DNA of 64,000 bases, taken from Psammoneis japonica (Eukaryota). Within the stretch, counting starts at the first letter, position 1; every line of letters begins with the position of its first letter. Shown one piece after another: positions 11,091 to 47,100 of the stretch. Below the pieces are notes generated by a model. That model did not search any database and was not told the origin of the DNA. It worked only from the letters and a program-made list of their open reading frames with translations. A program made the position numbers and the translations under genes. The stretch lies in NCBI GenBank assembly GCA_008632985.1, contig QPGO01000037.1:62001-126000 (forward strand), given 5' to 3'.

Positions 11091-11140
11091 CAATGTTTGG
11101 ATAGCCAGATCTTGAAGCAATGTTACCAATAAGGAATGCA

Positions 11141-11600: not shown

Positions 11601-12687
11601 TATTCAGCATCTATGCTTATGATTACCTTTAGCAATGGCTTGATAGTCAGAATCCCAGAAGTAACCCAGTTTTGAGTAATGGCATTGTTGGGTTTCCCTT
11701 TTCTCAAACGCAAAACAATAGGCCGGGTATATAGATACGGTAGAGTCGTCAAGCATTCTTATTTTATTGCAACACAGTCTATTCTACTAGAAATCTGTTT
11801 CTTCTAGGTTCTCAAGGCTAGAAGTAGAAGTGGGAATGGAGATCACAGTTTCATTGAAATGCTCCTAGTGCCACGTAAAGGATCCAACTCGATATGAGCT
11901 CCGTCCTTGGTAGCATGACGTATGGACTTATAATTACATTCCTCTCCATCAACTTCAGGTGAAAATGGAGCCTTGTAATAACCATTTCACCTTTTCCTTT
12001 GAAGCCCTGTCCAACCAAGTGAATAAATAATGCTCTCAAAGCAATGGTCGATCCCTTTTTCCCGCATGGAATTCTGTAATAAGCCAACAGCGGATGCGCA
12101 GTCTTGGTGGCGATTCAGCACTGAGCAATCTCTTTGCAATGGCATTCGGAATCACTCCAATGCCATTGGCACAGATCACATGCCAGCAACTGTGACCTTG
12201 GCATGTTGCATTGAGTATATGATGTCAGCACAAGTGATTGTGTTGTCGGTTGTGGCAGAATATGAACGCAAACTTGTCGGTTGTTGTGCGTTGCGTCGCG
12301 GTGAATTTCTAACTAAAATTATTTCGGATTTCGCCCCACAAAAATTCTCTCAGGTACAGCACATCGTGACAGGCGGAAGTACCAGCGTGATCCACCTCAT
12401 CGTTTTGTCGTTCGTGCGCGCGCTTAGTGTGCGAATGCGCGTGTGCGAACGACAACAGACGATTTATGCACCTCTGACCACGATGGCCAATGGCAACGCT
12501 CAGCTTGCGACAGGTCTCTAGTGTGGCCATGATGTTGTGTGATGTGTGATGGGCACTGTGGCACCGCGCACTGTGGCAACACTGTCAGCAGCAACAAGCA
12601 ACGACGTGAGCAGCGAATGGGTGGTGTCACTGTTTGCTGCAGCAGCGCGATTGCTGAAGCTGGTTGCAGGTGCAGCATCATGCAGCA

Positions 12688-12768
12688 TCAAGCAGAAAAA
12701 ATTGAGCGTGCACTGATGTTCCCAATCAACATTGTCATGCATGTCAATCATGCAACAATCATGGATGT
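12688..12768 (+). repeat. Remnant of the Gypsy 5' LTR
   Basis: Matches 15841-15920, including the identical 37-mer TTGTCATGCATGTCAATCATGCAACAATCATGGATGT. Confidence 0.85.
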
Positions 12769-15700
12769 TCTCATCCAGAAGACAAGAAGAGTTGCATCTG
12801 CATGAACAGTGTCAACAAGCACTGCAACAAGCAGGGAGCTCCCAAGTGTGTTGAATTTTTGAAAACATTCAGCAAACTCATTGAGTCTGAAAAAGACAAA
12901 GGAGCCTTTGAGAAATGCCTGCCTTGTCTCTCCAACCACATCTTCCCTGAAAATGAACTTCAGAGTCAGAAGTGGCATCTGCAATGTGATCACAAGAAGC
13001 CAGACTCCATGAAGATCCAAGAAGTTGTGCTGCTTGGACACAGGAGGTCAAGGAAAATTTCAAGTGCTGTCCTCCTTTTGAGCCTTTGCAGAAGAACCTG
13101 GATGAAGAGATGAGCTCTGTGACTGCATTTGCAATGTTGCACCTTGTTGATGGCAACATCAGTCAGCCTTGCAAGGTTTCAAAATTTTGGATCATGCCTT
13201 TGATGAGTTGGTGGAGTTCTTGGAGTGCCTGGAGGTCACTGAGAACACATCTGATCAAACTCATGTCAAACCCAACAAGTCTGGTTGTTCAAAAACCAAA
13301 GATGGCTCTCATTGCAGTCCCAAAAATGGGTGCAAATCTGGCACCAAATGGTCCAAGTCTGACAAGTGGTGCAATCATTGCAAGAAGACCACTCACAAGA
13401 CCAGAGCAAAAAACAGCCAAGAGAATGGTGTGAAGCAAACCCAAAATGGCAAGATTCAAATGGCAACCGGGGGTCACTGAGAACACATCTGATCAAGCAA
13501 ACTGATGTCAAGCCCAACAAGTCTGGTTGTTCAAAAGTTAAAAACCAAAGATGGCTCTCATTGCAGTCCCAAAAATGGTCACAAATCTTGCACCAAATGG
13601 TCTGAGTCTTTGACAACAATTTGGGTTTGCTTCACCATTCTCTTGGCTGTTTTTTGCTCTGGTCTTGTGAGTGGCAATCATGCAAGAAGAGTTGAACACC
13701 ACGATCATTCAGGCGGCCAACAAATCTCTCAAGATGAGTTCCTTCACAAAGAACCAGAAGTGCAGGAACAAGGAATGAGCAACTTGGATGAGGAATGACC
13801 AGCAGCACTCATGGAGATTTGCTCAAGTCCAGTGGTTGAAGGGTCAATGACAAGATCAACAAAACCCTCAATGCCAACTCCTCCCATGCTGCCAACCTCA
13901 ACAATGTGACTGCTGCAGCAACACATCTGACCCCTGAGGAACAAAAGCAACCGAGCTTCCTCCCAAATGGTTTGGGCCCCTTTGTGATGGTTTTCCAGGC
14001 AAACAGATGGGGAAACTGGTGGAGTTCACACTGAAATTGGGCGCAGCTCTGCATCATGCAAAACCTTTTCTCTTTCCACAAGCCTTGAAGGGTGCTGCTC
14101 AAAAGGGAGCAGACTGACTGTGCAAGACAGGAGCCCCAAGAAAAACAAGCCATTCTCTGAATGGGCAGCTCCAACCTTTGTTCAGTTGAAGAAAATCAGT
14201 CAAGCTTGGTTCCTGCTCAACTTCTGTCAGCTCAACAGAATGTCAGTGGCTGCACACTCCATGTCCTTTGCCAAAAATTCAGGATGTGCCACAGAAAAGC
14301 CAGAAGATTTCATGTGTGCAACCTTGCTTGATTTGAGCACAGGACATTGCCGCATTGCATTGACACCACATGCCCATTGTTTGTGCCCAACCATGATGCC
14401 ACAGGGCAAACATGAGCACCGCAGACTCCTCAAGGGAATTTGTGGAGCTCCAAATGTCTTTCAAGAACATGTGAGTGAGCTCATGGCAGGACCAGAATTT
14501 GTCAGAACTCACATTGATGACACAGCCCAATGTGCCTGACAAAAGGCAACTTCAAAGATCATCTGAAGAAAGCTCAAGACAGTGTTCATGCATCTCAAAC
14601 AAGCTGGTTTGAAGGTTGGTGCCAAAAAATCATTTTTTGCCAAGCCCAAAGCAGACTGTCTGGGCTTTCATGTCTCCTGAAACAGCACCAGACCAGCGCC
14701 TGAGAAATTGGAAGCAATTTAAGCAATTGCACCCCCACAACTTGCAAGGAAGCAAGCGCAATGTTTCATTGGTGTGATTGACTGCTGGCAAGACATGTGG
14801 CCTCATCAATCTCATGCACTTGCTCCTTCAGCCAAACTCACCTCATCTGAGAGGCTGAGTGGCAAAGGACAAGCACAGAACAAAATCTTTTGAAACTGTG
14901 AAAATCAAATGATGTTGAAAGACATGTTGTTGTCACACCTGAATTTCAAAGACAAGCTCTTTGAGATGTGTGCCAATGCAAGCAACAATCAATTTGAAGC
15001 AGCCATTGTGCAGAACAGCAGACCTGTTGCCTTCCACAGCCACAAGCCAAGTGGAGTGCAGAAGTGACACACCACAATGGGAAAAAAAATTCTGTCCACA
15101 GCTGAAACACTTGAAAAATTCCAAAACATGCTGTTTGGCCAACAGACAAACATGCACATGGATCACAAAAATCTTGCCCACAAGAATGTTGCAATGGGCA
15201 GAGCCATGCACTGGCATCTGATGATTGAAGAAGGCAGCCTCAAAATGATCCATCTGAGGGCAAGGCTGACGTCATTGCAGATGCGATCAGCAGACCCAAA
15301 ATGCACAAAATCCACAAGCAAATGCCACAATTGAGCATGCACATCAAGGGCCAGGCAACACATGGCCTGCACCTGAATTTTAAAATGCACCCCTGGACAC
15401 ACAGAATCCATTTGAGGGAATGCTGTCAGCAGCAGTCTTTGCAGTGCATTTGACATGCCATGCTGCTGTGCAAGCTGCACCAGGACAACTGGTTCTCAAC
15501 AGAAACATGAAATTTGATGTCCAACACAATGCTGACTGAAAGTTTGTTCAGAAATGAAAACAAGTCATTGCAAATAAAAATGGTGCTAGAGAGAATGCTC
15601 GATGGCATGCACTCCATGCACCCACAGAGTGAGAGAAAAGATCCCGCTGGAGAAAGATTCTCAAAACTAGAACAGCCCTGCATTGGACCTTCTTGTGAGA

Positions 15701-15824
15701 TGACAACAGCACACACCAATGTTGCAGCACAGGAGATCAATCATGGTGATGTTGTTGACACTGTCAACATCCATTGAAGGACTCCATTCAACAAATGACT
15801 CCAATGTGCAGAGCCAGGGAGGCA

Positions 15825-15920
15825 TGTGCAGCACGCATTGTCAAGCAGAAGAAATTGTGTGCATGAATGTTCCCAATCACAGGTTGTCATGCATGTCAAT
15901 CATGCAACAATCATGGATGT
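15825..15920 (+). repeat. Start of the Gypsy 3' LTR
   Basis: Begins TG just after purine-rich AGGGAGG (PPT-like, 15816-15822); matches 12670-12768. Confidence 0.8.
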
Positions 15921-16799
15921 GTGCAAAGGTCAGATCAATCACACAGAAATTTTGTCAGATGTCCAAAATTGCAAATGTGATTGATTGATGATGTTGTTTT
16001 GCAAGATGTCAATGTTGATTGCATCCAGACAATCTTGTCATCACAACTGGATTCTCCAAACACCTTTGCTGTGTGTGAGCAGTGCAAATGCTTTGGGCCA
16101 TTGAAAACTTGTTTGGAGAAACCCAAAACCGCAAAACAAAGTCTCCAATCTCACAATTGTTACTTTCAGTGATTTGCTCTGCTTTTGTTCATGCTCATGC
16201 ATGCTGTGAGCATGGTGCACAGACAAGAAGGTGGCAGGCAGCAATCATGGTGTGGTTGCAGCATTGGATTGACACCAGCACAAAATGCCAACATGAGCAA
16301 CTCAACTCAACACAACGATTGCCAGTTGGCACTGGTGCCCTTTACGGACTTTGGCCCCCAATGGACCCGACCGGCTGGGGTGCAGAACTCCTTGGAGAAA
16401 AGTTCCAGACCGGCATCTAAGAAATGGAAATAGAAAAAGAATGTTGACGCGTTCCAGGTCTAGGTGGGACCTCGTACTGCTGAACTGTGACATCGACAGT
16501 TTTTTGAATCACGTCGTATGTCGCGCACGTAGATTTCTACGTGATTTTTTCGATATTTTGTGTCATTTTACGGTACACTTATTGAGCGATCCGTCCAACA
16601 ACTTTTGACATTTTTTGTTACAGCGCGATTCTATAATGTCTTAAGAATCGCGTAGGGCAGGCGCATTTGCAAAAACGTCGAGTGGTAAGAGGCATAATTG
16701 TACCACAAACTTGGCCGTTTATTTGATGTTTAAGATAAATATATCCATTAATTAAATTCTCGTACTACGGAGCTCGCACGTAGAATTCTACGGGCCCAA

Positions 16800-19700
16800 T
16801 GTCACACGGAGTCCCACCTAGGGCTGGAACGCGTCTGTTTTGCGATCGCACTCAACCCAAAGTTGAGGAGCAACACCGTCAGTTGTCCAGTTCGTCGGAT
16901 GACAATGGGTCCCTGGTGCAGGTTGCTTCATTGTCGCCGGCGAAGCCGTCAGTTTTCCAGTCATGTCAAGTGGGTCCCCGGTGCAGCTGATGAAAAAGAG
17001 AGAGTTGCCAATCCACCACGATTGTCAGGAGTCAGAATGCTCCTGTGCTTGTGCCTCAACCTCCTGGTCCTGAGAAACATGACAACGTTTGGAGGGAGGG
17101 AGGTCTTACATCGTCGTCCTGATTGTTTGTCGGATCGAGTTCCCGAATTCTGGGTTGACTGCACACCCATCTGTGCAGCGCCGCTCGTTCATCCTGGAGT
17201 TGCACACCAACCCCAAGCTTGCGAGACAGACGTTCTCAGGCTGCCACGACATTTGCCAGCCAAGAGCGTTTGAAAGAGGTTGACTTCAAGAGCAGCGAGA
17301 CAACGTGACCGCAGAAATGACAAGCGAATTCCCCTGGAAGACCTTCTCGGCCCCGCTGAAAATGATGGCAAATCCATGAGTCTAGCTTGTCTCTGGCTTG
17401 CTTGCTGATTTGAGGGTGGGCGGCGGCGTTCCTGTGCTCCCACAGCCGATGCGTTATCCTGACAAGTTGGTGGACCCATCTTCTGACCCATTTGGATCCC
17501 GATTTTCTAGAGCCTTGGAGCCGGAAATGTTCCTGTTGCAGCAGAGCCCACTCCTTTGCCACACAGCCCTCCAGAAGTCTGTCCCAGCCAATGACATGTT
17601 GTGACTCAACCACCTGATGAAGGACCGGGCTTGCGCAAGGGTCGATGCAGACATTGACATTTTGCTGGCTGCGCCAGGCAGTGAGGTGTTCCTGAATGGT
17701 GGTCGCTAAACCAAATGCCGCGTCGTTGCGGTCCACCCAGCGGGTGTGTTTGCGCAAGAGCGACCTCCACTTGTCCGTGGCCTCTGGGCAAGTGGTGATG
17801 TGCGTGGCATCTTCATTATCGCCGTCTCACCGGGGGCATCGCAAATGATCCTGAACCTTCCAGCGTTTCAGCCATTTGCCTGCTCCGCACATTCCCACTG
17901 CGTGTTTGGCCATCCACCGTCGTTTGCCGACACCGAGACTCCTGGCGACAGTCTGAATGACATCCCAATCAATCCTGCGAAAGCCCTTGTCCGTGAAGCA
18001 TCTTTTTTGTTCGATCCAGCATTTCGCCAGCCGTGTGCCGTGAACGTGGTGATGCAGTCGATCAGAAAGCTTTGTCGAGATCTTGTGTCCTCCAACGAAG
18101 ACACCCCACATTTCGTCTTCGATGTCAAACTGTCGTGGCTGCCTTTCCTGGGGATCTGGTCTGGTCTCGTGTTGCCATCAAGCTTTAGCCAGGTTGTCCA
18201 TCTCAATGTTCAGTCTTGCCCATCTGTCGAGTCTTCTGCATCGTTGAGTGTCTTGATGTCCTTTGACCCACCGGAATTTCCACCGCAGCGGGCTCTTGGC
18301 GATTTTAGCCTTGACAGCGCTTAAAATGTCGAAGTCATTGGACTGAGCTGTGACGGGAAGAGTGGGGTCCGACGATTTTTGCAGGGCTTGTTTGCCATCA
18401 CAGGCAATTTCAATTGCTCCTTGATGAACGTCATGATGCAGACAAATGTCTTCAACTGTGCAAACAATGCTGCAGAGACCCGCTGTCTCTGCTCGGCAGG
18501 AATTCACATCACCAGGGTGACCTGGCACAACATTGGCACCCGTCACTTGGTGGGTGTCTCGTTTGCCTTGGACAGTGAATGCCGATGTTGCAAGATCGTC
18601 TTTAGCTGACCCGTCACTGACAGCAATGGCTGCTCCTGATTTGATGGCGTTGGCAACACACAATCCATCGTCGTCGACCGAGACTTTGTCGTTCGCCCAT
18701 TGTCTGGCTGGAGGTCGTTGGCGGAGGCGTTGGAGAAGATTGATTGGGGCTGGGGCGTCTTGACTGAGTCTCTTGCCGGTGGACCCCGAGCGACACATTC
18801 CCCATCTGTCCTCACCTTTGTGGCAAACACGGGTGCGTTGACTGTCGTTGGGCAGTGCAGCCGGTCCAGCCGGGATAAATCTGTGATGATGGTTTCTCAT
18901 TTGCCTGCGACTCGACAACCTGAACGATGTCCATTGGTTGTTCTGACCTCTTTGATGTGGTTGCTGTTCAGATGGAGAGTGGAGCCACTGCCAGCGGGAA
19001 TCATTGTCTCTAGCATCAGGAAGCCAGGCGCCCAAGGGATGGTGCAGTCGCCTTGAACAGACGTTGGCAGCCTGTGCAAAGCAGTGCCTTAGAGCCTTGT
19101 GCCACATCGTCCAATCGGCAGCCTTCGGGCGTTGCTGCGGGGGCCAATTGCACTGGGACCGAAAGAAGACATCCTTCTTTCCATTCCACATGTCACACAG
19201 AATGTCACATCCATTGCCAGTTGAGATGTCAGCAAGTGTCACGACATTCAGGAAGACATGGCAACGATTGAGGGCCTGCAGCTCAGCTCCGACAAAGCCA
19301 TCATCTGCAAATCTTTCCATGAGAAAGGCGTCATTCTTGCGTGAGAGTCTCAGCGACGGTGTGTCTTCTTTGATGCTGATGTCGTGGCTTGAAAAGAATT
19401 TCCAAAGATGTTTGACCCATGATTGGGTGGCTGGGCATCCGAACAATTGGTGGGAACTCGCAAGGAAGGAGCTGCCAATTCCGACTTCCAGCTTGTGTTT
19501 CTCCACAAGTGCTTGGAGAAGTTGACCCGTGATCGTGTCAGCTTTGCCGTGTTTGACAAATGCCTTGACATGTTTCCCACACATGGCAGAAGCGATCGAT
19601 TCAAATCCGAGGCCCTGCAGTCGGACAGGACCGTGCACAACTGCGCAGGGAAAGGACTCACACAAACCCAATCTTGGAAGGCCTTGCTTGAGCAGCGGTG

Positions 19701-19901
19701 CTTCGATGCATTTGCATTCTTTCGATGACAGGGCAAGGGCGAGAAGAGGATGGTCAAGGGCCTCATGGACTCGTTGAGTCAGAGCCAGCCACGCATCAGC
19801 CTTGGAAAGATGACCTGGTCAAGCCCGATCCGCCCAACCTTCAGCATGCTTCCGGAGTTCTTCCACCGCCTTCCTGCAGTTTCCGTCAGGGGCTGGCCAC
19901 A
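16800..19901 (-). mobile_element. 3' part of an Ambal-like non-LTR retrotransposon (post-RT region, RNase H, C-terminal domain, 3' UTR)
   Basis: WPAPDGN right after the junction; RNase H AVSDGS / NSCRAETAG / ACDGKQAL / WVKGHQD / LNIEMDNLAKA; C-terminal IGWDRLLEG..LWEHRN; 3' end approximate. Confidence 0.88.
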
Positions 19902-20457
19902 GCATCAGAGGCCGCAACACAGTGTTGTTCACTTTCCTTTGGAAAATTTGGGACATTTGTTTTGACAATTGTGTGCAAAAATTAGTGATGGTTCATTTGT
20001 TTTTTGACAGTCAATTTACACTCATTGTCGCCATTTTATGTTGGCAATTGTCGCCGTTTTATTTTGCTTTTAAGTTGCCAAAGAATTTCAATGAGCCCTT
20101 TGTTGTTGAACAACGCTTTTTGTTTTGATTAATTTTTCACACATTTGTGGAATCGTCAACTTTGACAGTGCTTTTCAATGGCTTCACCGCAGCCTTGCGT
20201 CACCACAGACAATGGCATTTCTCCCTCGCCCCAGTCGGCCATGCAATTGCCTGGAGGAACACCATCTCATTGTTTCCACCTGCACGCTCCAGTTGTCCAG
20301 TCAACAGGCCCCCACCTGCATTTTGGCACCTTTTCTACATGCGCAGTTCTCTGCCCATTTCACAACAGCACACCCTCTCCCCAAAATGCTTTTGACGAGA
20401 GGGTGTGCTGTTGTGAATCCTGCACATTCTACGTGAATCGGCAACTGACTGTTGGCC

Positions 20458-23400: not shown

Positions 23401-24477
23401 GAGAAATTTTGCGATGCATTTCTAGACCCTTGTTGCGTCGGAACCGCGAATGACCTAATTGATGCAATGGTGGAAGAAATCTGTGCTGCACTTCTCTGGA
23501 TGAACAACAACGTTGACACCAACGAGTTCTGTCCCAACTTAATGGAACAATGGTGCAAGGCAGCGTGTGATGCTTGGGCAGACCGGGGAGCAGATTTCAG
23601 TGAGATTCGTCTCATGTTGGTGCTGCAATGTCTGGTGCTGGCAGGTGTCACAGTGAAAGACCATCCAAGACTCAACAACATCATCTGTCCTGTCTTCAAT
23701 TCGGGAGCTGCCGCACAACTGGGGCATGTTCAACCGGAAGAAAGGCCGCTCATGCACCAAAGGATGTCATCCGAAACAGGAACCGAAGAGCACGGTTGGA
23801 ACGGAACTGAGCACAAACTTTGTGAGAATTCAGACAATCGCTGCACCTGTGTTTTTGATTGTGTTTTCCAAGGACCCTGTTCAGGACAAGACCTGTTTGC
23901 CTTCTCTCCCTCTGGGCAGCATCTCTGCAAGCCACATGGGCCAACCGAGTGTGAAATTTTGGAGTGTGTTGACGACGACCCCAACCTTTTCCAATCACAA
24001 GACAATGCTGAATCGTGCACATTTGTGTGTGAATCAGCCATGCAATCAGACGGTGCCAGTGTTTTCTCTGCTGTTGATGGACTGCCCGCGGACAATGAAC
24101 TTAGCTCATTGTCATCGGAGGAGTCTAGACTCGCCGCAAACAATGAACTTGGCTCATTGTCTTCGGAGGATTGTCGATTTGACGTGGAGAAAGAACCAAG
24201 TTCATTGGATTCGGAGGAGTCTCGACTCGCCGCAGACAATGAACTCAGCTCATTGTCTTTGGAGGAGTCTGTGTTGTCGGAGGACTGCTCGTGTCCTGAT
24301 TCTGACTGCCGCGTTCCAATTGTCACGGTAGATTCTGTTGTCCTTCAGTTGCAGGATCAAGAATCCGATGAAGATGATGCAAGTGACGCAACCGCGTGCG
24401 ATCGACCCGAGCCACCGGTCCTTTTACAAGCACAAGATTTTGACATGGACAAACATGTGAATGCCATTTTTGAGTGA
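20458..24477 (+). pseudogene. Large transposon cargo gene (frameshifted; main 942 aa ORF 21649-24477), possible DNA base-modification enzyme
   Basis: Adjacent ORFs 20452-21237, 21446-21652 and 21649-24477 linkable by frameshifts and a TGA; HCDNKN at 22726-22743; SGAAAQLG..EHKLCE ending 23826; acidic repeat tail; Tyr nearly absent. Confidence 0.55.
24090..24270 (+). repeat. In-frame tandem repeat encoding DNELSSLSSEESRLAA-like units (x4)
   Basis: Repeated AATGAACT..GCTCATTGTC..CGGAGGAGTCT.GACTCGCCGCA. Confidence 0.85.
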
Positions 24478-25424: not shown

Positions 25425-25538
25425 TTCCCAGTCGGATTTGTGAGCAGATTGTCAAAGCAGGTGAGTGAACGTTGTCACTGTTGTCCTTGTCGTCCCAATC
25501 AAGTTTTCTGCTGCTGTTGTCGGATGCTCACATGCTTT

Positions 25539-32096: not shown

Positions 32097-32562
32097 AAAG
32101 GCAGCGGAGGCTTTTGTCAGTGTGATGATGGAAAGAGGACAAGCAATGTAGCAGGTTTCAATGTTGACAGTCACAAGGTTTTAATGAAGTGTCAAAGGGA
32201 TCATTGTTTTGTGATCTAACCTTTCGTTTGACAACCAGTGCATGCAATGGAACCAGTGCATGCAACAGAAGGTTCTCTTGACCAATGCAACGCAATGATT
32301 GGCATCAAATTGTTGTTGACCAAAACGTTGTGAACATTGCTTTCAAAAGGTAAAAAGTGACGGAATTCTGACAGTCAAGGGAGGGGTCCCACAGGCAAAG
32401 GAGGGGTCCCATGGTGAAAAATGTAACACTGTGATGTGCAATAAAAAATCACGTTCTACACAACTCACTCAATGTGAAACTGTTGCATTTGTGCCCCACA
32501 ACAGCACCAAAAATTACCCACAAGAAGGGTGGTCAGGATCACCACATTTCGCGCTCTGATGC

Positions 32563-35500: not shown

Positions 35501-35580
35501 GACTTGTTGCTTGTGCTCTCTTGTTTGACATCGAGTTTTCTTTTTCTATTTCCATTGCGGCAGCCGCCTCTCTTTGTCAA
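32563..35580 (-). pseudogene. LINE ORF2 N-half: APE endonuclease and reverse transcriptase
   Basis: APE ITFQNINGL, NET, GRWSW, IVAAHRPC, SGDVN, PIDGIW, GSNH; RT LRPVLCFEVDAN, EQCGSRKG, DLRSCYD, GLGQGDGNAPQIW, FAFVDDSD. Confidence 0.88.
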
Positions 35581-38500
35581 ATGACCACATGGCCACCCAC
35601 CGTGATCCTTCTCTTCATGCGCTGCTCGGACTCACTGGCTTGGTCCCGTGCCAAGCCGGCTTGAACGATCTGAGTGTCGCCCTGGAAGGGATCCGACTCC
35701 CCTCCCTGCATTGCTGCAGTGGCTTCACTGGAGACGCTTTGCGAGGTCTCCATGTTATCGTCATGTCCGTTGCTCTGTTCACTGAGAACAGATCCTGTGT
35801 CGACAGATTGGGCGATCTTCTCCTTTCCTTTGAGGAGGGCAGATTTGACCAGCCCAACAATGTCTGCTAGAGTCATGTTTTTTGTGTCGACGTTGTCAGG
35901 GAGATGGGCTGCCAGATCCTGAATCTCGCCAGTGATGTTGGCCATTTTCTGTTTCGTGGTCTCCGTGGTTCCCGAGGTCTCATTAGATTGGTGTGATCCA
36001 GAAGATTTCTCATCTGTTGGTGGTTGCTTGGTCGGATTGACATGAGCATTTTTTCCTTTCCTGGCTTCTCGAGCCGAGGCTGGTGTGTCTTCGTCAAGGC
36101 CGCCTCATCCAAGCATTGCTGGGTCGACAGGTTCTGGAGCAGGAGGAGTGTTTTCAATTGGTGAGTTGTCTTGCATCACCTCAACTTGGACGTCTTCCAG
36201 ATTCTCAAAGTCATGGTCATCATTGTCTGGCTCCTCCACCAAAGCTTGGGTGCGTGGGTGAGTGGTTGCATGCTTTTCTTCGTCCCATCCAGCTCCTTCC
36301 ATGTCCTGCACATGGGAGGCAGCAAAGAACCTTTCAACACCGCGTCTGTGTCGATGCCGCAGGTGCGGAAGCAGGGAGTGAGCCATGGGAAGGGCCTCGG
36401 ACTCCACCTGTGGATGACATGTCACTGCAGCGGTTCCTCCTTTGTGCTGAGGAAGCACTCCTGCCTCCATGAACTGAGTGGATTTTGGTTTGTTTGGTCT
36501 TTTGATCATTGCGATCATCTGCCAAAGAGTGAGTTTCGTAGCTGGATCAGGTGCGTGGAGAGCTTGAACATTGTGGAGAGGAGCAATTTTTGCGTGTTTC
36601 AGGTGGGCTTGCTGCCGGATGACTGCCGTGTCCACAAGATCAGTCTCGGTTGGGCTGATGCAAAAGGAGCATTCGGGAACAAGCTTGGCGATGGTTCCGA
36701 GCGGTTTGTTGGGGTTCGATTTGGAGAACATTGCTTGGAGAGGACCTCCAGCGTTGTCTGCGTCTCGTTCGTCCATGATGATGTGCAGAGCTTTGGGTTG
36801 TGGGTGTGCAGCCATTGCGTCTGATGGTTTAGAGACTTTCCAAGCACGAAGCTCAACTGGCACCTTAAGACGAGAGCCAATTTCCTTTTCGAGCTGAGTC
36901 GGGTCGAGATCGGCGTGAGCCCACATGAGGAAAAAGCCTCCTTTGGTTCTTTCCGCCTTTTGAAGGACCTTGGGTTTGAGGAAGACTTTGAATGTGTCGT
37001 TGAGTGCGTTTTTAAGGATCTCCTGATTCTCATTGGGGTGTTGGTCCATTCCGAGTCGGAGATCGATCCAATTGTCTTTCTCCGGATTGAGACGAACACA
37101 TTGGAGATGCTGGCGCATCTGTCCGAATGGGAGCTTGGAGAACTGCTTCCGAAAGGTTCCGCCCTTGAGAGCAATGGCCTTGTCGCCGCAGTCTCCCGAC
37201 CACGTCGCCACTGCGACATTGTTGCCGGTGAGATTGCACGCTCTGTCCATGACCTCACCAAAAAATTTTCCAATTGAGACTTCTGGATTTTCATCCTTTG
37301 GGAGATTGGATTGTGCAGGGAGTTTGAGAGTGTGGCGATGCCAACATTTTCGAACAGTTTTGTTTGATTTCGAATTGATGGGGTCGAAGAAGGCCGATGC
37401 TTTGATGACTTCATTGGGTTCTTCCACCGGTGCCGTCTCCATTGACCGTGATTCATTGTGGAGGTCATTGTTTTCTGGTCCTTTCTTGACTCGTTTGTTG
37501 GGTTTCTGAGTTGTTTTGGTTTTCCCTTTGTTGTCGGGAGTGATTTGCTTGGTCGGTTGTCCTGAGCCGGCCTCATTCGCAGAAGTGGAGATGGCCTTGG
37601 CCGTTTTCGTGGCTGCCGCATCAGGGGCTCAAAGGGTGTTTTTTTTGTTCTCATTGGTCGTCTGAGTTTGTTTCTGGTTGGGTTTGGTGCCTTCCGAAGT
37701 GACCTTGGATTGTGCCGCCTTGAGGCTTGACAACAGTGTGGTCGATTTCTGTTTGTTTTCAGCTGGTTTTTTCCTGGTCGAGAGCGTTGTTCCTGTGAGT
37801 TGACGAGAAGTGTTTGAGGGGATCGTGGTTTTTGGATCGGTTGTTTTCAGCATGATTTCTTCATCGGAGCTGGAGGTCTGGTTGTCAGACAGTCCTGTGG
37901 TTTTGAATGGCTTGGGAACCGGCGGTGCAACACCAAGAACCACCACGTTGTCATCAGAGTCCTGGGATGGATTGGAGTGACAAAGGAACTCTCCGTCCTG
38001 TGGGGTTGTGCCACTGCTGACCGAGCTAGAGTCAGAGGACGAGGAGGAGGACGAGGAGGAGGAGGAGGAATTTGTTCCTTCGTTCGAAAAGGAGGAAACA
38101 CTCTCGCTGTCCTTGATCTTGGCCTGGAGTGTGGCGTGCCTGTGTGCTTCCTTTTTTTCAATGCTTGGTGACACGCGCCTTTTGTTGCTCTGATTGGAGA
38201 GATCATCTTGAAGGTCTTCGTCAACAGGAGTGTTCTTAATGAAATTGTTGACAAAATCCTCTTCAGAGTCGAGCGTCGAGTCGACTAAAGAGTCTTCGTC
38301 GCCGCCGCTTTGGAGAGGTTCATGCCTGTTTTTGTTGTGTTGATTGGTCGAACAAGGTGAGTCAGTGGGAGCTGAGATCTCTTTGTTGGAATCGTTCATC
38401 GATGCTTCCGGTTTCTCATTTTTTGCAGTGTTCTTGGGGGTCTTGCAGTTGCTGTTGTCTTCTTCGAAATCCATCTGTTTCTGACCGATTTCAGCCGTTG

Positions 38501-38666
38501 CGCCAGGAGAACCGTCAATCTCAAGAAATTTTTTGATCCCTTGCTGTTTCGGATGCATCCTTTTTTGCTTGCGCTTGTCGGGAGAACTCACATCGGTTTG
38601 AGAGGTTACTTTCTTGCTGGGTGAGGAGGCACCCTTGCGTTTGGTGCCGTTTTGCTTGTTGGCCAT
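35577..38666 (-). pseudogene. LINE ORF1 (long, low-complexity N-terminus), frameshifted
   Basis: Consecutive ORFs 37629-38690, 36105-37442 and 35577-35945; stop overlaps the start of the ORF2 frame. Confidence 0.65.
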
Positions 38667-38749
38667 GGTTGATTTTCGTTGCTGGTTCACGTGGGTGCTG
38701 GCACTGAGTTTGTGTGGACTTTCCGGGTCACTTTAGATGCTGATGCGCG

Positions 38750-41700
38750 CTGCCAACATGAGCAGAGCAAGCAATGGGTGCTCAGCATCCAACAAGGAGG
38801 TTAGAACATCACAAATCAAGCAAAAAAAAACATCAATGAGTCTGGCTGCCAATGTGCATGCCAAAACAGGAATCCAAGACTTGGCATTGGCTCCTTGTCA
38901 TTTGTGGGACTCCTTGTTCCCTCCCCAGCCATCGGAAAACCAGCACTGTGCAAAAGATCCAAAAGCTTGCTTCAACCACAGTGTTGCCCACCAACAATGT
39001 GTGGTCCTTGTGGAAAATCCACAGAGGGCCATGGACATCTTGGAATGGCCACTGCCAAAAACGAAAAGCAGTCCTGTTGTTTTCACAATTCACCAGGGTC
39101 ACATGCACTCATTTGTGAAAGCCCTGATTGTCAATCTGTGGCTTCATGTCTCCACAGTGCAGCAAGTCCTGTTTGCTGTTGCCAGACAGCAATTTGCAAA
39201 GTTTTGGTGTGAGAACAGAATGGTGCTTTTTGCTTTGGGCAATTTAAAGTGTTCTTGTTTTGACAGCTTCTGCTGCTGATTGCATTGTTGTCATTTAGAA
39301 TTCCTCCCACGAGTGGGTTGAAATCTTGATGGCACATGTCAACATTTTGTCTTCCCAGCTTTCTTCCTGTTTTTCTTCTGAAATGGGCTCCTGCCTTGTG
39401 CTTGGTTTTCCATGATTCATGCATCATTTTCTGCATGGTCAGCACTGGCAAAACAGTGGGGCAAGATTTGGCAAAAGATTCAAATTCTTTCTGGAGATCA
39501 CTTTGTTTGCTGCTGTCCCTGAAGTGCTTTTGGTTTTGTCAAACCACCTGTTGGAAGTGCAGAATGAACAAATGCCATCAATCCTGCCCACCTCTGACCC
39601 CCATGCACTGGTCAAGGCATTTGTGGTGGCAAGAGCTGCACCCTTTTGAGTGATGAGGATGCAAAAGTGGTGTCTTGCAACAATCATTTCCCCTTTTCCT
39701 TTGAAGCCTTGTCCAAGCAAGTGAACAAGTGATGCTTTCAAAGCAAAGGTTGGTTCATTGTTCCCTCACAGAACTTTGCAGTGACCCAACAATGGATGCA
39801 CAGTCTTGGCACAGCAATTTGGTGCTGACAGTCCCTTTGCAGCATCATTTGCAATCACTCCAGTTTTACAACAGACAACCCATGCACCTCTGGATGATGC
39901 CACCTGATGGCAATGCATCCAAAAATGGCTCTGTCCACATCTTTTTGTGGCTTCTCTTTCCCTCACCTGATGATCGCTCCAAAAGGGCCAGGGAAAGCTC
40001 ACAATTTTTCTGTTGTGACAGAAGAGTGCAAGTGCAAGTTGTTTGGCTTCATTCCACAATGCAGTGCAACAGATTGCCAAAAAGGCATGTTGGCTGCATC
40101 AGCCAAATCAACACCAATTGCTGTTCACTCCAGCAGAACAACAATGGAGATGTGGTGCCCCGCCAAAATGAACTCTGCACCCTCATCACAAACTGCAAAG
40201 AGGACAGCTCTGGCTGTTGGCTTGCACTCTTGAGCTGCTTTCAAGACTCTGCCACAATGACCTGATCCATCTGTCAAGGCTTTTGCTCTCTAAATTTGAT
40301 GCACTGGCTGACAAATGAGACAAAGAAGTCACAGATTTCTGGGTTGTGGACTGCCTTGCAGCCAAAAGAAGCAGTCTGCACCTTCAGAACCACCATGATG
40401 CACTGGTTTGCCAAATCAAACTCCACATCACCATGTGGAGATGGGGAAAGCTCTTGTCAACAATGCACTGTGACAGATCTGAGTTCTTGAGAGCTTGCCC
40501 AGCTTTGGACACACCCACAGATCCAAGTCACCACATTTGTTGTGAACTCTTCCTGATGCTGTGTCTGTGACTTGGCCTCATTTTTAAACTGCTGTGGCCA
40601 CTGCACAACAGAAATGGCACTCTTGATGAGAAAAGGCATCTCTTGAACAAAAGAGCAATGTAGAAAGAGAAAATGCATGCAAGCCAAACAGGTGCAAGAA
40701 ATGTGCAAAGACTCAACAAACGCACAGCATGAGTGGCAACACATGTGGATGGTTGATGGTGGTGATGCAACAGAAGCAACATCATCAGTGCAAGCCTTCA
40801 ACAAGAATTTTTGCCACAACCCAAGCATGCAAAGCTGAACATTCTCAAGCTTGTCTCACATCTCATGATGAAATGCACCCCAGATTCTGTTGGATTGCCC
40901 AAATTTTTGCCTCAGAGACAACCACATTTTTGAAATGTGCAAAACACCATTGTCTGCACAATTTTGTGTGTCACAATGTTTTAAGATGTGAGCCAGAAAA
41001 CACTCCCAAAACCTGTTCTGCATGGCAACCATGCCTGTCAGGGAGCATCAACCATGACATCAGGCAGCCCCAACCCTCCATGTGCATGTGCCTCTGCTGC
41101 AGTGCATTGGCCCAGCACGGTGGATGGTCACAGCCAGCATGTGTGCAGGGCCCCTGTGTGTGAGTGCCACCAAGGGCAACAGATGGAGGGGCCATTGGCG
41201 GTGCAGATGGCCATCACATTTGATGGCTCATGCCATGTTTGGGCCTGTGGCAAGGTGCGCAGTGTGCAGACCATGGAGACTCTTTTTTCTCCATTTTGCT
41301 GCCAAAACACTGTGTTGCACAAACTTGCTCGTTGTTTGTGACATGTTTTTTCCAGTGTGACTTTTCATGTGCAATTCATGACAAATTGTCTTTGCACAAA
41401 GCTGAGTGCATTGTTTTTCAACATTCCATGCTGGCAACCCTGATTTTTCATGAGTTGAGCATGTCTGAGCACACACTTGAGCTTGAATGAGTGGTTGAAC
41501 ACATTTGAGCACAACAAACCAAACACTGTTGTAAAGCAGGATGTCAGTTGCTGGCAGATCTGGCAGTCAGCAGAGTGCAGCAGCCTCATGGCAGCCAAGC
41601 ATGAAAACCACCAAGTCATCAGCGCCAGAAGATTTGTTCAAACTGCTGCGCAAAGATGAAACAGGCTGTTTTGCACTGCTCAGCAAGGGTCAAACAATGG

Positions 41701-44700
41701 CTCTCTGCTGTTCTCCATGTCTTTGGTGTGGTGAAAGAAAGGCAGTTGGCAATTCAAATGAGCACAGTTGAGCATGTTGAGCACATGGCGGCACACTCAA
41801 GCACATTTGAGAACAGTTGGAGATGATTTGAGCACAGTTGGGCATCAGCAAACCGGCAATGACATCAATCATCAGCAGAAGTGAGAACAAGAAACAAACA
41901 AACAAACATTTTCATTTTAACAAAGGTTTGTAATTTTGATGCCCCCCACGCATCTTTGTGAGTGAGTGCCAGCAAAAAACTGAGTTGAGCCCTTGTTTTT
42001 GCCATGTGATGAGTGGCCATTTTTGCCTCACACCACTTGCACACCAGCCCAAAACTGGCCATTTCTTCCCATTTTCTGGCTTTTCAGCATCCAAATGACT
42101 TCTTTGATGACAGTTGGTTGTGAAATGGGCTTGAGATTCACTCTCCATCCTTGTGAGCCCATGTGTCGACTGTTGCACCACATGTGAATCTCATCAGAAA
42201 GATGCCAAAATTGCAAAGTTCAAGTTTGCAAGAGCTGTGCCAAACGACAAATGCATGAGAGAACATGCAGTCTCTCTCCATGAACAAGTCAAGGGGAGTG
42301 CAAATGAGTGGTCCAAAGAATTTGTCATGCAAAATGCTCAAGTTTCCATCATCCGGGAGAGGGTTGAAGTTGGCTGGGGAACTTTGGCAATTTGCGCAGA
42401 AAACATGTCAAGTTCCATGCACGCAGAATCTGGCCCATTTTTGCAGCCATGCCACCCCAATCTAGCTTCTAAAGTTGCGCCTCATTTGTGCAATGGCTCA
42501 ATTTGGTGCCCCGCACATTTCTGCATGTCAAGTGCCAGAAGAAATTTTCAGCACATCTCCAAAACCATCAACACAACAAGCAGCGCCATTCGTTGACCAT
42601 GCCAACGGGGTTCATGGCATGGCATCTTCTCAGAAGAAGGACAGCACATTCACTGCAGCACATCATGAGGCATCTGTGAGTGTCACAGCAGATGTGCTGA
42701 CATGCTTGTTGAGACCACACAGCTGCTTCATTTTGAAGCAATCTTGCTGGTGCCATTTTTTTGCATCCTTGTCTTTTCATTCACAAACAGGGTGTCCAAT
42801 GGCCAAGTGGTTGTTCAACATGTTTGCAGCAGGGCCAGCACCCACCAGAATCATGTCAGATTTACACGAATGCCCTGCAGCAAGTGTCACAGCAGATGCA
42901 TGATTGACACACTTTTAGATGCTGTGCAACTGCTCCATCGAGGAGCAATCTCAAAGGTGTCTTTGTTGCCTCATTTGCTGTGCAGGGTGTCAAACGGGTG
43001 TTGAGTTGTCAATGTGTTCACAGTTGCACCTGCCAGTTTCCCACCCCCCATCAACATTAAACCCCTGAAGGGACGGTGCTCCCAGTCTTTCATCTCTTCG
43101 ATTTTCTTCTTCTTGTGGAAACTTGCCACTGTCTCAGACTCCGGAGCCTTTTTGCCATCCTTGAAGGAAAGTTGTGCGACTTCTTGATGGATCAGTTGTT
43201 CTCAAAACATGATTGTCATCAAAGAGGAAGTTCCAGAGTTGGGGCCCACCTGTGCAAGTCAACAGAGTTGGGCCAATTTAGACTCGAAATGACATGGATT
43301 GCAATTTCTGTTGCGCTGACATCATTGTTTCTGAGCAATCCATTGACTGCGAAGTTGTTGCTTCTCACTGCATTGACTTCAAAACCAGTTGAAATTTCAG
43401 CAGGTGTGCAATGTTCACAGCTCCTGAACATTGGAGCCGCAAGCTTTCCAAAGATCTCATCCAGTTGCTCACTTGCGCCCAAGTGTGCATCAATGTCATT
43501 GGCAATTGGCTGCAGTTGCTGACTTCTCCTTGCAGGAACAAGCCATGACAAAACAAGTGCCATGCTGGTGACAGCATCAACTTGCAGCTGGAACATTCGC
43601 ATCAAATTAAAAAGCTTCAAAATTAAGAAGCAGCTGCATTTTTGTGCAAGGGATGATGGCATGTGATGTGCACATCTTTGCAAGACAATTTCTTGATGTC
43701 AGGTCCAAGTCTTGCAAAGAACAGTTAAATCTCATTTTTGCATTTAAAACACAGACAACCATGTTCAATGGCAATGGGCAGCTGGAGAAAACTGAAACAA
43801 CATCTGAGCCCAAACACACATGGACAGAAGTGGCAGCAATTGAAGATTGTCATGGCAGCAAAAACAGTTTGATTGCTTGGTTTTTTCATCATTTTTTCGA
43901 TCAACTCAACACATGGGTTGGAAAAGGACTCAGTTTGGTTTTTCACTGTGCCGGCACATGTAAGATGAATGTGACAATGTCTGTCCTGGCACACAACTGC
44001 AGCATTTTCCTTTTTGAGTGGTCATTGGTGGTCAACAAAATGCATGGCAGCAGTGAATCTGCACAGATTTGGGTGTGCCAGGCCATGTAGAAAGTGAACG
44101 GGTTGAAGCACACATGGCCGACGGCCCATGGCCATGTTGCTGACACATGCTGCAGTTTCTCCAACCTCTGGCATGACAGGAGAAAAGTTGTTTTTTTGTG
44201 GCCATGGACACGCAAGAACACAAAATTGAATTTTGTGTCTGGAATGGATGACACCTTGAACCTGGTCAATGTCATTGTGCCCTGATGTGAATCCCCAGGC
44301 AGCTTGTCTTGGTTCAGTGGCAGCATGGAACAGACTGGCTTGTCCATCCTCCTGGCACTGGGGTGGGGTGTTTGGTTGGAGCTGATCTGGGATGAGGAAA
44401 TTCATGAGCCTCTGAGGCAGAGGGTGAGTTGCACACAACTTGCAACAAATTGGTTTTGTTCAAAGCTGCACAAAGCTTTCAACATTCCATGCCATGAACC
44501 CCAATCATTCAAAAGTCTTGATGCCCCAGACTCCAAGCCAAGCAACAAGAGGAGGCTGCTGCCTGGTCAAGTTGTGGGGGCCATCACTGAAGAAGACCAG
44601 CAAGGGACAGATGGGGGGGCAAGGATGGAGGGCAGATGGACACAACAAGATCCCAGACATGCATGACTGACCCACACATTCTTCCCTTGCCAGTCAGCAT

Positions 44701-47100
44701 CAGAGGGGTTGCAACCATGGCAAACCACAGCAGCCATTTCTCATTGCGAAATTCCCCACCACGTGCCCACCCCAGCTGCTGCTTTTGCACAGTGCCAGGT
44801 GTCCCACATCTGGTCTGGGCTGTGCAGCTGCTGCAAACTTTCAAACTCACACACCTGGGGCAGCTCCCACTGACTGGTTGCTGCTTCTGCATCACAACTG
44901 CTGCTCTGCCCATTGCACATGCATCATTGAGGCACTGATCCCCTGAGGCAGGAGTGACTGGGAATCTCCAATGTCACCCCCCATGAAACCCAATGTGTGC
45001 CCAATGCTCTTTCTCCAAACTTGACCAGCTCAACAGTGTTTCCTGAATGTGCATTTCAGCTGTCCCAAATTGCCTCCTTGGTCAGTTCAAATTTGTTCAG
45101 GAGGGAATCTTCTGTTGGAAAATGGTCATGACATGTCGACATGCTGCGCAAGTTTCTCATGGAAGATGTGTCAGCATTGTTTGTGCAGAGTGCAGAAATG
45201 GGCTTGAAAAAGAGTTTGGTTGACACTTCACAAACATCAATTTGACTGACCAAATTAATTTAGTTGGTCTGCAAACTTGGCGGACCAAAACATTTTGGAC
45301 CAACCAAAGTGGCAATTTGGTCCAACCAAAGTGCACATTTGGGAAACATGGATCCCAAGAAATGGCCTGTGCTGTTCAAGGTGACAAGGGACACACTTCA
45401 AAGCAGTGGCCAACCAACACAGGAGTGGTCAACAGCTCCCACTCATTCATGAGCATGGCAGAGGTTTCTAGCTGCTTTTGAGTCTTGGAAAGACTGACCA
45501 GCACAACTGAGTTGGTCACATGTGTTGCCGCATCTGACAGTGCAAAATGTGGTGCACGGAAGCTGTCACACAGACAGACTGCCACTGCGATTCTCCTTGA
45601 CACCCAACTCTGAGACCCTGTCCAAACTGGACCATGCCTGTGTGCACACCTGGTGTCATGGAGCCAAGAGCAAGCCTCTTCAAACAAATTGGTGGTTGCT
45701 GGCCCTGTGCATGACACAATTTTGGGCCATGCCAACTTCAGCAAGGAACTTTGTTCTGGCCAGAACAGCATTTCCTTGAAAACATCATGCCCCAAACACC
45801 ACACCCCCAAGTTGAGACACAAAACAACCCAGAAGCAACTTTTTTGATGCAACAAAAGTGAACATGGCTGCATCTTGTCCAAGGACAACCCACAACCTTG
45901 TCACACATTGTGCACTTGCTGTGTTTGGGGTGCATTGCACGCTGTTCTTGTCTCATCACAATGCAGCATTTTTCCTTGACATTCTCTCAAACAACAAATG
46001 GCAGATGCTTGTGCAGTGAAGTTGTTCACACACAAGCCATGCATGAGTTTAATGTTTGCTGTGGTGATCAATTTTTGTCATTTGCTTGGCTCATTGTCAC
46101 CTTGTGTCTGCATTCTTGTCATCACAGTGGCATCATTGTTGTCATGTTTTTTTGTGTTTCATGTCACCCCAACTTCATTGATGCAGCCAGCTCAGCACCC
46201 TTGTTAAATGACAACACACTTGTGTCATGTGGATGAAGCACAGGTGTGTGCAAAAGCAAGATGCAGTTTGGAAAGCACTGCATGGGCACAAAAGTGTGAC
46301 ACCCACAAAAAGCTTCATGCTGACATCAGGCATGTGCACCAGTGTGATCCAGTTTGGACAGGGTCCAAGAGCAGAGAGTGGCAGCAGCACATTCTGGGTG
46401 GCATGACATGTCTGAATCAAGACCCTGGTGTCCAAACTAAATTGGGCCATGCCTGTGCATGCACCTGATGTCATGAAGCCTTCACGCAGATGTCACAGGG
46501 TCACACCCACCTGCAGCACAAGCAGCAAGCATGCTGATTTTGTGGGGGAGAACCGTTGAACAATTGAGTGGATGGATGTGTTTCAACAATCGCGCCTCCA
46601 CCTCAAACTGCATCATCCAAACAAATCGCCACATTGGCGGTGCTTGTGTGTGCAAGGAATTTGGTTTTGCCATTTGCTTTCTCCAAAAACTCATGCCAAG
46701 TCATTTTACATGGCCTTGGTGCAGATTCCACACAAGTGGAATTTGTGCCAAGTCTGCCCTGTTTGGCTCAGATTGCGTTTTTGGAGAAAGCGCGAGTGGT
46801 GGCAGCAAGAACCAAATTCCTTGCATGTGAAACGCAGGTTGGGCACTGATGGTTTGTTCAGATGACATGGTTTGAGGCAGAGATGTGATCATTGAAACAC
46901 ATCCATCCACTCAATTGTTCAATGATTCTCCCCCGCAAAATCAGCCTGCTCACTGCTTGTGCATTGCCCTCCAAATGGCTGCATCATGCTTTCATGCATG
47001 CCCACACTTCACCCATCATGCACAAACACATTCCTGCCCTGATTTTGTTTTTTTTTGTCACTCATGCAGGTTGATCATTTAACAAGGGTTTAAACCAACT
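38750..47100. other. Highly eroded repeat/TE-derived tract lacking both TpA and CpG
   Basis: TG/CA-saturated; no credible ORFs; 39650-39862 is homologous to 11940-12160; internal direct and inverted repeats at 45600-46965. Confidence 0.7.
46515..46965. repeat. Long imperfect inverted repeat (foldback/MITE-like), arms ~185 bp
   Basis: GCTGATTTTGTGGGGGAGAA..TTGAACAATTGAGTGGATGGATGTGTTTCAA near 46535-46585 is mirrored at 46892-46945; mirror ORFs both begin MDGCVS. Confidence 0.85.

Follow-up and report, generated by a model that had tools for sequence, protein, structure and literature searches.

TpA-poor tracts in transposon-rich DNA of the diatom Psammoneis japonica and the process that may have produced them

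Introduction

What removes nearly every TpA dinucleotide from one part of a genome while the genes beside it keep theirs? This question is raised by a stretch of 64,000 nucleotides (nt) from the diatom Psammoneis japonica (GenBank assembly GCA_008632985.1, contig QPGO01000037.1, positions 62,001 to 126,000), which is referred to as the window hereafter and which carries remnants of transposable elements (TEs) together with host genes. A sequence-only reading of this DNA had described TpA as nearly absent over ~34 kb and in smaller tracts, and had ascribed the absence to a repeat-targeted defence that turns TpA into CpA or TpG. To our knowledge, targeted hypermutation of selfish DNA is textbook material only for fungal repeat-induced point mutation (RIP), animal AID/APOBEC and ADAR.

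The existence of TpA-depleted tracts is confirmed by the present analysis. We consider it rather probable that they are silenced, decaying mobile-element DNA, in which TpA has been driven near saturation to CpA and TpG by a locus-restricted process acting at the DNA level. It would be the same kind of process as one observed de novo in the rhizarian alga Bigelowiella natans.

Extent and edges of the TpA-poor tracts

Within the window, TpA and CpG were scored as observed/expected (O/E) ratios of dinucleotides, in 1-kb steps and by region. In host DNA, the TpA O/E was 0.53–0.69 by region (0.3–0.8 in the 1-kb scan). The scan values fell to 0.01–0.2 over 12.5–47 kb, and again at 48.7–50.6, 55.1–56.1 and 58.45–64 kb. 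Taken tract by tract, the ratio was 0.03 (12,500–16,200), 0.10 (17,100–38,500), 0.05 (38,600–47,000), 0.05 (49,000–50,600), 0.08 (55,100–56,100) and 0.06 (58,600–64,000). The main deficit was counted over 12,500–47,000 minus the region of one short element, a miniature inverted-repeat transposable element (MITE). The remaining 34,101 nt hold 177 TpA, against 2,173 expected from base composition and 1,239 expected at the host O/E of 0.57. The description of a near absence over ~34 kb and in smaller tracts, with normal host genes, is therefore upheld (177 versus 1,239; O/E 0.03–0.10 versus 0.53–0.69).

The tract edges are sharp to ~100 bp. At the left edge, the final TpAs stand at 12,465 and 12,519, and the next one is found only at 13,539; at the right edge, TpAs occur at 46,707, 47,080 and 47,091 and become dense from 47,235. 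The edge of the tract at 58.45–64 kb falls between the TpAs at 58,418 and 58,827.

The complementary gain was found in CA and TG, whose O/E is 1.4–2.0 across the kb-scale tracts and ~1.9 in the tracts poor in both TpA and CpG. Per 1,000 dinucleotides, the latter tracts lost 36.8 TA and 43.9 CG (80.7 together) and gained 84.6 CA and TG; the tract poor in TA only lost 42.1 and gained 30.4. The surplus of CA and TG accounts for the deficit of TA and CG. Over all six frames, TAA occurs 162 times and TAG 96 times, against 1,589 for TGA, and owing to this scarcity of TAA and TAG the tracts contain many long open frames without domains.

The components of the depleted DNA are as follows.

12,520–16,445, plus strand: remnant of a Gypsy/Ty3-type long terminal repeat (LTR) retroelement; TpA O/E 0.03, CpG O/E 0.13
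16,446–16,835, no strand assigned: MITE of 390 bp with terminal inverted repeats and a TGTT target duplication; normal TpA and CpG
16,836–19,959, minus strand: 3′ part of a long interspersed nuclear element (LINE), with the region after the reverse transcriptase (RT) and RNase H; tblastn cover at 17,100–19,959 with 150 homologues
19,960–32,564, no strand assigned: nested insertion of ~12.6 kb that splits the LINE, whose halves end at 19,959 and 32,565
21,577–24,474, plus strand: open frame of 966 amino acids (aa) within the nested insertion, no known domain
25,542–28,563, minus strand: Plavaka-type transposase in three frames; homologues P0123–P0125, one with PF18759
32,565–35,553, minus strand: 5′ part of the LINE, with AP endonuclease and RT; tblastn cover, frameshifts and stops
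35,554–38,500, minus strand: TpA-poor DNA upstream of the LINE; TpA O/E 0.02–0.10
38,600–47,080, no strand assigned: heavily decayed tract poor in TpA and CpG; TpA O/E 0.05, CpG O/E 0.15, CA/TG ~1.9
48,700–50,600, no strand assigned: small tract poor in TpA and CpG; TpA O/E 0.05, CpG O/E 0.42
55,100–56,100, no strand assigned: small tract poor in TpA and CpG; TpA O/E 0.08, CpG O/E 0.35
58,450–64,000, no strand assigned: tract poor in TpA and CpG that reaches the window end; TpA O/E 0.06, CpG O/E 0.16

Identity of the depleted DNA

The Gypsy remnant was recognized from a match of its RT (~14,315–14,525) to the Ty3 RT (4ol8; E = 0.001) and from an RNase H at 15,068–15,331 (RT_RNaseH, E = 3.6e-5); a word-indexed homologue search with the RT frame gave no match. 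In the LINE, the 5′ part shows a weak RVT_1 match at 33,193–33,519, and the 3′ part, which lies near single-copy depth in the sequencing run X1 described below, contains a 546-aa open frame free of tyrosine (Tyr) at 18,181–19,818. The nested insertion has a TpA O/E of ~0.05–0.23 with CpG only mildly lowered, and no convincing terminal repeats were found for it. Upstream of the LINE, the open reading frames (ORFs) at 36,108–37,628 and 37,632–38,732 contain 0% Tyr and have no Pfam match.

Among 198 tract frames of at least 90 aa, Pfam returned only the weak RVT_1, a RING finger and two chance-level matches, and among 89 further frames of 62–89 aa only RT_RNaseH and chance-level matches. No Pfam domain was found in the tracts at 38,600–47,080 and 58,450–64,000, and an Rfam scan of the whole window gave 0 matches. 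TE identity is thus established only for ~12.5–35.5 kb, the DNA at 35.5–47 and 58.45–64 kb being without a recognizable domain.

Two side observations concern the frames in these tracts. Within the nested insertion, the 966-aa frame and a 316-aa frame (together 21,577–25,421, plus strand) are Cys-rich, contain 0.4–0.6% Tyr and have no Pfam match; four tandem units of 48 nt at 24,039–24,266 encode an acidic Ser/Leu-rich repeat. These frames adjoin the Plavaka-type transposase and may be a candidate second gene of that element. In the tract at 48.7–50.6 kb, a 249-aa open frame on the minus strand (48,600–49,346; 0% Tyr) carries a RING finger (zf-C3HC4_3, E = 1.4e-5); it may represent a copy of a host-type gene that was drawn into the process, or else a gene that travelled with a TE.

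Direction and specificity of the change

A TpA deficit might in principle be native or selected, for example through escape from a UA-cutting nuclease or from TA-targeting insertions, and TpA is indeed mildly under-represented everywhere, host DNA included (0.53–0.69). Comparison with homologous proteins bears on this point. The LINE was polarized with 150 homologues of its C-terminal frame (phmmer, best E = 1.7e-103), which were placed on the window by tblastn; 600 columns were scored in which 30 or more homologues gave a consensus of 50%. Conserved Tyr was kept in 1 of 16 columns, the others reading cysteine (Cys, 6), histidine (His, 5), phenylalanine (3) and alanine (1), against 423 kept of the 584 non-Tyr columns (Tyr versus rest, p = 8e-8). 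Arginine (Arg) was kept in 26 of 43 columns, and its replacements include stop, glutamine, Cys, His and tryptophan, as CpG decay predicts.

The other enzymes behave in the same manner. In the aligned block of the Gypsy RT, all 6 Tyr of Ty3 read His (5) or Cys (1), GHCRI and THIDD corresponding to GYHQI and VYLDD of Ty3. The Plavaka-type transposase keeps Tyr in 0 of 7 Tyr columns, and its CRAHPDC..HDW corresponds to RAHPDY..WYDW. Within the LINE, all 44 homologues have Tyr where AHRP of the AP endonuclease has His (codon CAC), and 95 of 137 homologues have Tyr where SCRAE of the RNase H has Cys. In the host control, a chromate transporter compared with 120 homologues, Tyr is retained at 7 of 9 conserved positions and Arg at all 9. 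Pooled Tyr retention is accordingly 1 of 29 columns for the TEs versus 7 of 9 for the host (p = 2e-5). His (CAY) accounts for 12 and Cys (TGY) for 8 of the 29 TE columns, a balance which implies that both strands are hit. The replacement of conserved Tyr by His or Cys in unrelated TE enzymes, noticed earlier at these same motifs, thus holds in three TE classes, and the ORF at 18,178–19,671, which had been singled out for having no Tyr at all, indeed has none.

The substitution spectrum was drawn from 99 single-step replacements in the LINE protein columns for which the ancestral codon is unambiguous. Of these, 32 are A>G or T>C. At TpA lie 15 of the 21 A>G and 9 of the 11 T>C changes, that is, 24 of 32 A:T>G:C replacements against 17.6% expected (p = 2e-12). 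At CpG lie 14 of the 16 G>A and 4 of the 10 C>T replacements. The TA-specific excess that the sequence-only reading had called for is therefore present, and its account of a strand-symmetric A:T>G:C change at TpA agrees with the 24 of 32 replacements and with the involvement of both strands.

One nucleotide-level comparison was available. Self-BLAST of the window gave 12 matches, of which only one, a 200-bp pair, lies between TE copies: a TpA-normal copy at 11,962–12,159 and a copy inside a tract at 39,664–39,862. All 6 TpA of the normal copy read CA (4) or TG (2) in the tract copy, and 5 of its 6 CpG read TG or CA there. When the ORFs on this pair were compared as protein, only 26 residues aligned.

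Relatives of the LINE in environmental DNA were sought by a metagenome scan with a 5-sequence alignment, a single LINE protein having found no relative as the query. Their TpA O/E was 0.59–0.88 in 16 of 16 loci. None of the 150 LINE homologues is Tyr-free (minimum 0.8%, median 3.0%). Taken together, the comparisons indicate that the TpA deficit stems from TA>CA and TA>TG changes rather than from native composition. The latter explanation appears extremely improbable: catalytic or invariant Tyr is destroyed, frameshifts and stops mark the elements as dead, and the LINE relatives are TpA-normal in all 16 loci. Since a DNA transposon is also affected, the process acts on DNA.

Flanking letters

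The few TpAs left in the tracts are distributed unevenly by context: ATAT 0, ATAC 1, GTAC 7 and TTAA 47. Two baselines were used for comparison, host DNA and the environmental LINE loci. TTAA density in the tracts is 0.64 of the former and 0.39 of the latter. With R for purine and Y for pyrimidine, R-TA-Y occurs at 0.19 per 1,000 in the tracts versus 12.8–15.9 in the baselines (~1–1.5% left), and Y-TA-R at 2.54 per 1,000 versus 6.3–9.7. The flank ranking is identical in CpG-poor and CpG-retaining tracts. A flank rule is thus evident, by which R-TA-Y disappears whereas TTAA mostly escapes. A four-parameter model, in which the strands are hit independently at a rate set by the 3′ neighbour of the A, reproduces all ten classes; the relative rates per strand are TAT ~6–12, TAC 3–6.5, TAG 2–3 and TAA 1.

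By symmetry, the rule can be stated as a purine favoured 5′ of T, and this is where an attack on thymine has to be considered. In such a case, a TET/JBP-type or other enzyme would modify the T of R-T-A in silenced DNA, the modified base then being mispaired or misrepaired to C. On the palindromic TpA step, T>C on one strand is A>G on the other, and the flank rule fits a favoured purine before the thymine just as well. Dinoflagellate 5-hydroxymethyluracil (5hmU), moreover, prefers TpA and TpC. Against this, the 5hmU:A pair is only weakly mutagenic. We regard attack on thymine as unlikely.

The flank rule also bears on the view that no dedicated enzyme exists and that a chromatin-dependent bias (late replication, error-prone repair, or the polymerase at flexible TpA) erodes TpA in silenced DNA. 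The loss is regional and continuous over nested elements and over DNA without recognizable domains, and the copy of the host-adjacent segment is mutated only inside the tract; both facts would suit such a bias. The specificity is extreme for it, R-TA-Y remaining at ~1–1.5% of the baseline and TTAA at 39–64%, and few of the A>G changes lie outside TpA (6 of 21). In B. natans, furthermore, the rise in mutation was ~1,000-fold and was switched on or off between lines (Mettrop et al., bioRxiv 10.64898/2026.01.13.699255), a pattern that speaks for a regulated activity. A bias of this kind seems quite improbable as the explanation.

Another possibility is ADAR-like A-to-I hyperediting of TE RNA that became fixed in the genome, which could happen only through reverse transcription and only on the transcribed strand. 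Two of the elements are retroelements, and the preprint cites a U before the edited A as the neighbour preference of ADAR, which suits the A>G changes (10.64898/2026.01.13.699255). Nevertheless, the DNA transposon and non-coding or domain-less DNA are equally affected, hits on the two strands are similar in number within a single ORF (His 12, Cys 8), and the loss continues across element junctions. ADARs are metazoan, and they disfavour a 3′ U, yet this is the most favoured context in the tracts. The transposase and the strand symmetry already contradict RNA editing of this sort, to which we give hardly any chance of being the cause.

A second process at CpG

Two kinds of tract are distinguished by CpG. 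Its O/E is 0.13–0.42 at 12.5–16.2, 38.6–47, 48.7–50.6, 55.1–56.1 and 58.45–64 kb, and 0.71 at 17.1–38.5 kb. The CpG loss does not follow the flank rule, ACGT and GCGC surviving comparatively well. A single enzyme for both the TA and the CG loss was considered and rejected, because the CpG loss is uncoupled from the TpA loss and lacks the flank rule. The CpG loss is a second, separate process layered on the TpA loss, and it is most simply explained by deamination of 5-methylcytosine in methylated TEs. The sequence-only reading, an account of TpA alone, was right about the TpA loss and left out that CpG, too, is scarce in roughly half of the depleted DNA (O/E 0.13–0.42).

An untouched element inside the tract

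The MITE, whose perfect terminal inverted repeats of 12 bp start with GACGCGTTCCAG, sits inside the depleted tract and explains the TpA-normal island at 16.3–17.0 kb. It retains 32 TpA, R-TA-Y sites included (ATAT 3, GTAC 4). The run X1 has an empty-site contig, in which the MITE is absent and 16,441 is joined to 16,836. In the same run, the summed word depth reaches 62,000–83,000 in the two bins that contain the MITE (16,004–17,337) versus ~180–350 in host DNA, which places the MITE at ~400 times single-copy depth. In a small run, X3, only the MITE was covered, by contigs of 47–154 nt, which could be small RNAs or reflect mere abundance.

As this high-copy MITE is untouched, copy number alone is not the trigger. 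The terms "repeat-targeted" and "repeats of all classes", by which the process had been characterized, do not fit an untouched MITE at ~400-fold depth and a mutated LINE 3′ part near single copy. The MITE may be exempt through its shortness, its youth or its lying outside a guiding signal; it and the normal copy of the 200-bp duplicated segment, both unmutated, may fall short of a length threshold or may postdate the process.

Agreement with sequencing reads

A base-calling artefact would mean that modified bases in TE chromatin were read as G or C by a long-read caller and that the true DNA reads TA. Methylated motifs do cause systematic errors in long-read consensus sequences. The public sequencing run X1, from which contigs were built with words of 31 letters, was used for comparison; it covers 73% of the sampled words from 10–20 kb. 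Of 6,955 X1 contigs aligned to the window, 1,335 are at least 99% alike to it. X1 contigs with word depths of 30–190 carry the TpA-poor sequence exactly; one of 416 nt equals 14,267–14,682 with 0 differences and spans the GHC and HIDD sites. The tracts also contain frameshifts, stops, nested insertions, a MITE with its target duplication and diverged paralogues, and the sparing of TTAA with the erasure of ATAT is alike in the two tract classes, which an artefact would produce only through a real site-specific modification. The TpA-poor sequence is probably not an artefact, and this rival is judged very improbable.

Paralogous X1 contigs differ from the window at 987 transition places versus 250 transversion places. 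Among 30 events inside the tracts, which come from a selected subset of 40 of 1,243 rows, the window has CA or TG against CG in 10 and against TA in 3, and 4 are double TG/CA swaps (17 in all). Such swaps are expected when a single ancestral palindrome was hit on one strand in one copy and, independently, on the other strand in another copy.

Host genes and neighbouring DNA

Outside the tracts, the long, intron-poor ORFs code for ordinary eukaryotic proteins: a chromate transporter, a lysine methyltransferase, an E2 enzyme, an ankyrin protein, a trehalose-phosphate synthase (TPS) and a Cu/Zn superoxide dismutase (SOD). The ankyrin, TPS, SOD and chromate-transporter genes have normal TpA and Tyr, and the best named relatives of the chromate transporter are all diatoms (Fistulifera, Epithemia, Nitzschia, Mayamaea, Cylindrotheca and others; 65–76% identity). 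These relationships point to a diatom host, probably a raphid pennate.

Several further observations concern this DNA. Beside the left tract edge, inverted copies of ~150 bp that are 71% alike (9,434–9,578 and 12,329–12,477) flank a 3-kb TpA-normal segment, which contains ~185-bp units in tandem at 9,918–11,089. A contig of the run X2 omits ~117 nt twice at 10.1–10.7 kb, resembling a spliced gene with repeated short exons. The segment may belong to a host gene, or it may be a mobile element that has stayed unmutated. X2 is RNA-like and gives no cover at 12.7–30 kb, a blank that says nothing on expression. In the host DNA at 10,001–12,300, X1 contigs differ from the window at isolated sites (10,050, 10,657 and 11,196, for example) with all depth for the other letter, which indicates another strain or haplotype, or the loss of one allele by the contig builder. 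At 51,594–53,598 (plus strand), the GT20 domain of the TPS extends across two adjacent frames (profile positions 19–253 and 253–472), likely split by a short intron or a frame change at ~52,680–52,700. Finally, a 387-aa ORF at 473–1,636 (plus strand) has an HNH_2 endonuclease domain (E = 1.5e-6) and lies in a stretch with a TpA O/E of 0.30–0.39, below that of other host DNA.

Nature of the process

The letters uphold a TA>CA/TG process that acts symmetrically on the two strands and is confined to the DNA of mobile elements. The change is an A:T>G:C transition on either strand of the palindromic TpA step, and the agent would be an enzyme. Guidance to TE chromatin would come from a silencing mark or small RNA, not from copy number. 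The effect would be to disable mobile DNA by removing all Tyr codons; the TAA and TAG stops would be removed as well, leaving long spurious open frames. In terms of chemistry, the likeliest agent would be a nucleic-acid deaminase that turns adenine into hypoxanthine in 5′-TA-3′ of DNA, a proposal to which we give a little less than an even chance. The genome-defence role and the chemistry put forward in the sequence-only reading are both better put conditionally.

Several points weigh against this account. The mass balance is looser in the tract poor in TA only. Some 17 kb of the depleted DNA is only putatively TE-derived. Because internal paralogues are few, the nucleotide-level spectrum depends on one 200-bp pair and on changes deduced from proteins. 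X1 comes from the only study that contains this DNA, and since that study may be related to the assembly's own source, the comparison with its reads is only weakly independent. TpA being palindromic, its sequence reads the same whether A or T was attacked. As for the enzyme, ADAR favours a 3′ G and disfavours a 3′ U, and the tRNA contexts of ADAT2/3 have mostly a purine at position 35. The favoured 3′ pyrimidine in the tracts differs from these contexts, and a moonlighting tRNA deaminase is thus no obvious fit.

A broader and more tentative proposal is that diatoms and chlorarachniophytes share an old DNA-editing immunity across the stramenopiles, alveolates and Rhizaria (SAR). A chromatin-guided deaminase or thymine modifier would rewrite 5′-R-TA-Y-3′ in silenced transposon or viral DNA, as a mirror of RIP, would remove every Tyr codon and would push invaders GC-ward; the window would then display the saturated end state of this immunity and its sequence preference. 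We regard this as possible, though less likely than not.

Comparison with known systems

The sequence-only reading knew of no named pathway for such a change. A 2026 preprint does report de novo TpA>TpG/CpA hypermutation in B. natans (Mettrop et al., bioRxiv 10.64898/2026.01.13.699255). According to its available text, two integrated viral regions mutated at ~1,000 times the background in mutation-accumulation lines; the changes were almost only A>G/T>C, all at TpA, and appeared in some lines only. The targets are integrated giant-virus and virophage DNA that retains many TpA (Rho 0.45). The same text describes clusters of TpA-poor, CpA- and TpG-rich windows in the genome and an enrichment of DDE, endonuclease-RT and RT Pfams among the TpA-poor coding sequences, and its authors propose DNA adenine deamination with an ADAT2 homologue as a candidate (10.64898/2026.01.13.699255).

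The diatom tracts share with this system, as described there, the A:T>G:C change at TpA, the loss of TpA with a gain of CpA and TpG, and the confinement to foreign or selfish DNA beside normal host DNA. They show every feature of the B. natans signature that sequence can reveal. They differ in lineage (a stramenopile diatom, not a rhizarian) and in target, since LTR, LINE and DNA-transposon remnants are affected here. They also differ in that a de novo rate was obtained for B. natans, whereas the diatom tracts are known by their end state only, near saturation (O/E 0.03–0.10). The flank rule and the CpG overlay, both features of the diatom tracts, do not occur in the accessible B. natans text. 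A literature search for TpA hypermutation, with most subscription journals outside its coverage, found only this preprint and nothing for diatoms or other stramenopiles.

TpA editing in DNA was thus first reported in 2026, for one rhizarian alga and, in the text at hand, with no enzyme identified. A diatom would be the second lineage, so that the phenomenon is not a single-species curiosity and may be widespread in SAR; it affects ordinary transposons of every major class, not only integrated viruses. What is new here is the flank rule, the separate CpG overlay and the untouched, very high-copy MITE. The TAT>TAC>TAG>TAA ranking can be used for comparison between lineages and for in vitro enzyme screening, and the question moves to a group with genetic tools and many genomes. 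Such tracts also defeat domain-based TE annotation, Pfam having found almost nothing in them amid long false ORFs. For base-editing work, too, an enzyme that naturally edits adenine in DNA within a defined sequence context would be of interest.

Decay of 5-methylcytosine is the second process to be compared. Diatom TEs are CpG-methylated, and DNMT5a is present in Phaeodactylum tricornutum, according to the part of the source available (PMC9998398). Such decay would explain the CpG>TpG/CpA component of the CpG-poor tracts. It cannot remove TpA, as the region at 17.1–38.5 kb shows with a CpG O/E of 0.71 and a TpA O/E of 0.10.

With ADAR and AID/APOBEC, the proposed process would share the principle of deaminase-based mutational restriction of selfish nucleic acids. 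APOBEC converts C to U in TC and CC contexts. Unlike APOBEC, and unlike ADAR, which acts on RNA, the process in the diatom hit a DNA transposon on both strands at TpA with a 3′ pyrimidine favoured.

A further parallel is RIP. In ascomycetes, RIP causes C:G>T:A changes, mostly at CpA, creates TpA and hits all copies of a duplication that exceed a length threshold. Both phenomena are transition hypermutations that favour certain dinucleotides, ruin mobile elements where they stand and leave a sharp contrast with the genes nearby. The main change in the diatom is, however, the reverse, as it destroys TpA, and its C>T component lies at CpG, not at CpA. RIP is a functional analogue that runs in the opposite chemical direction.

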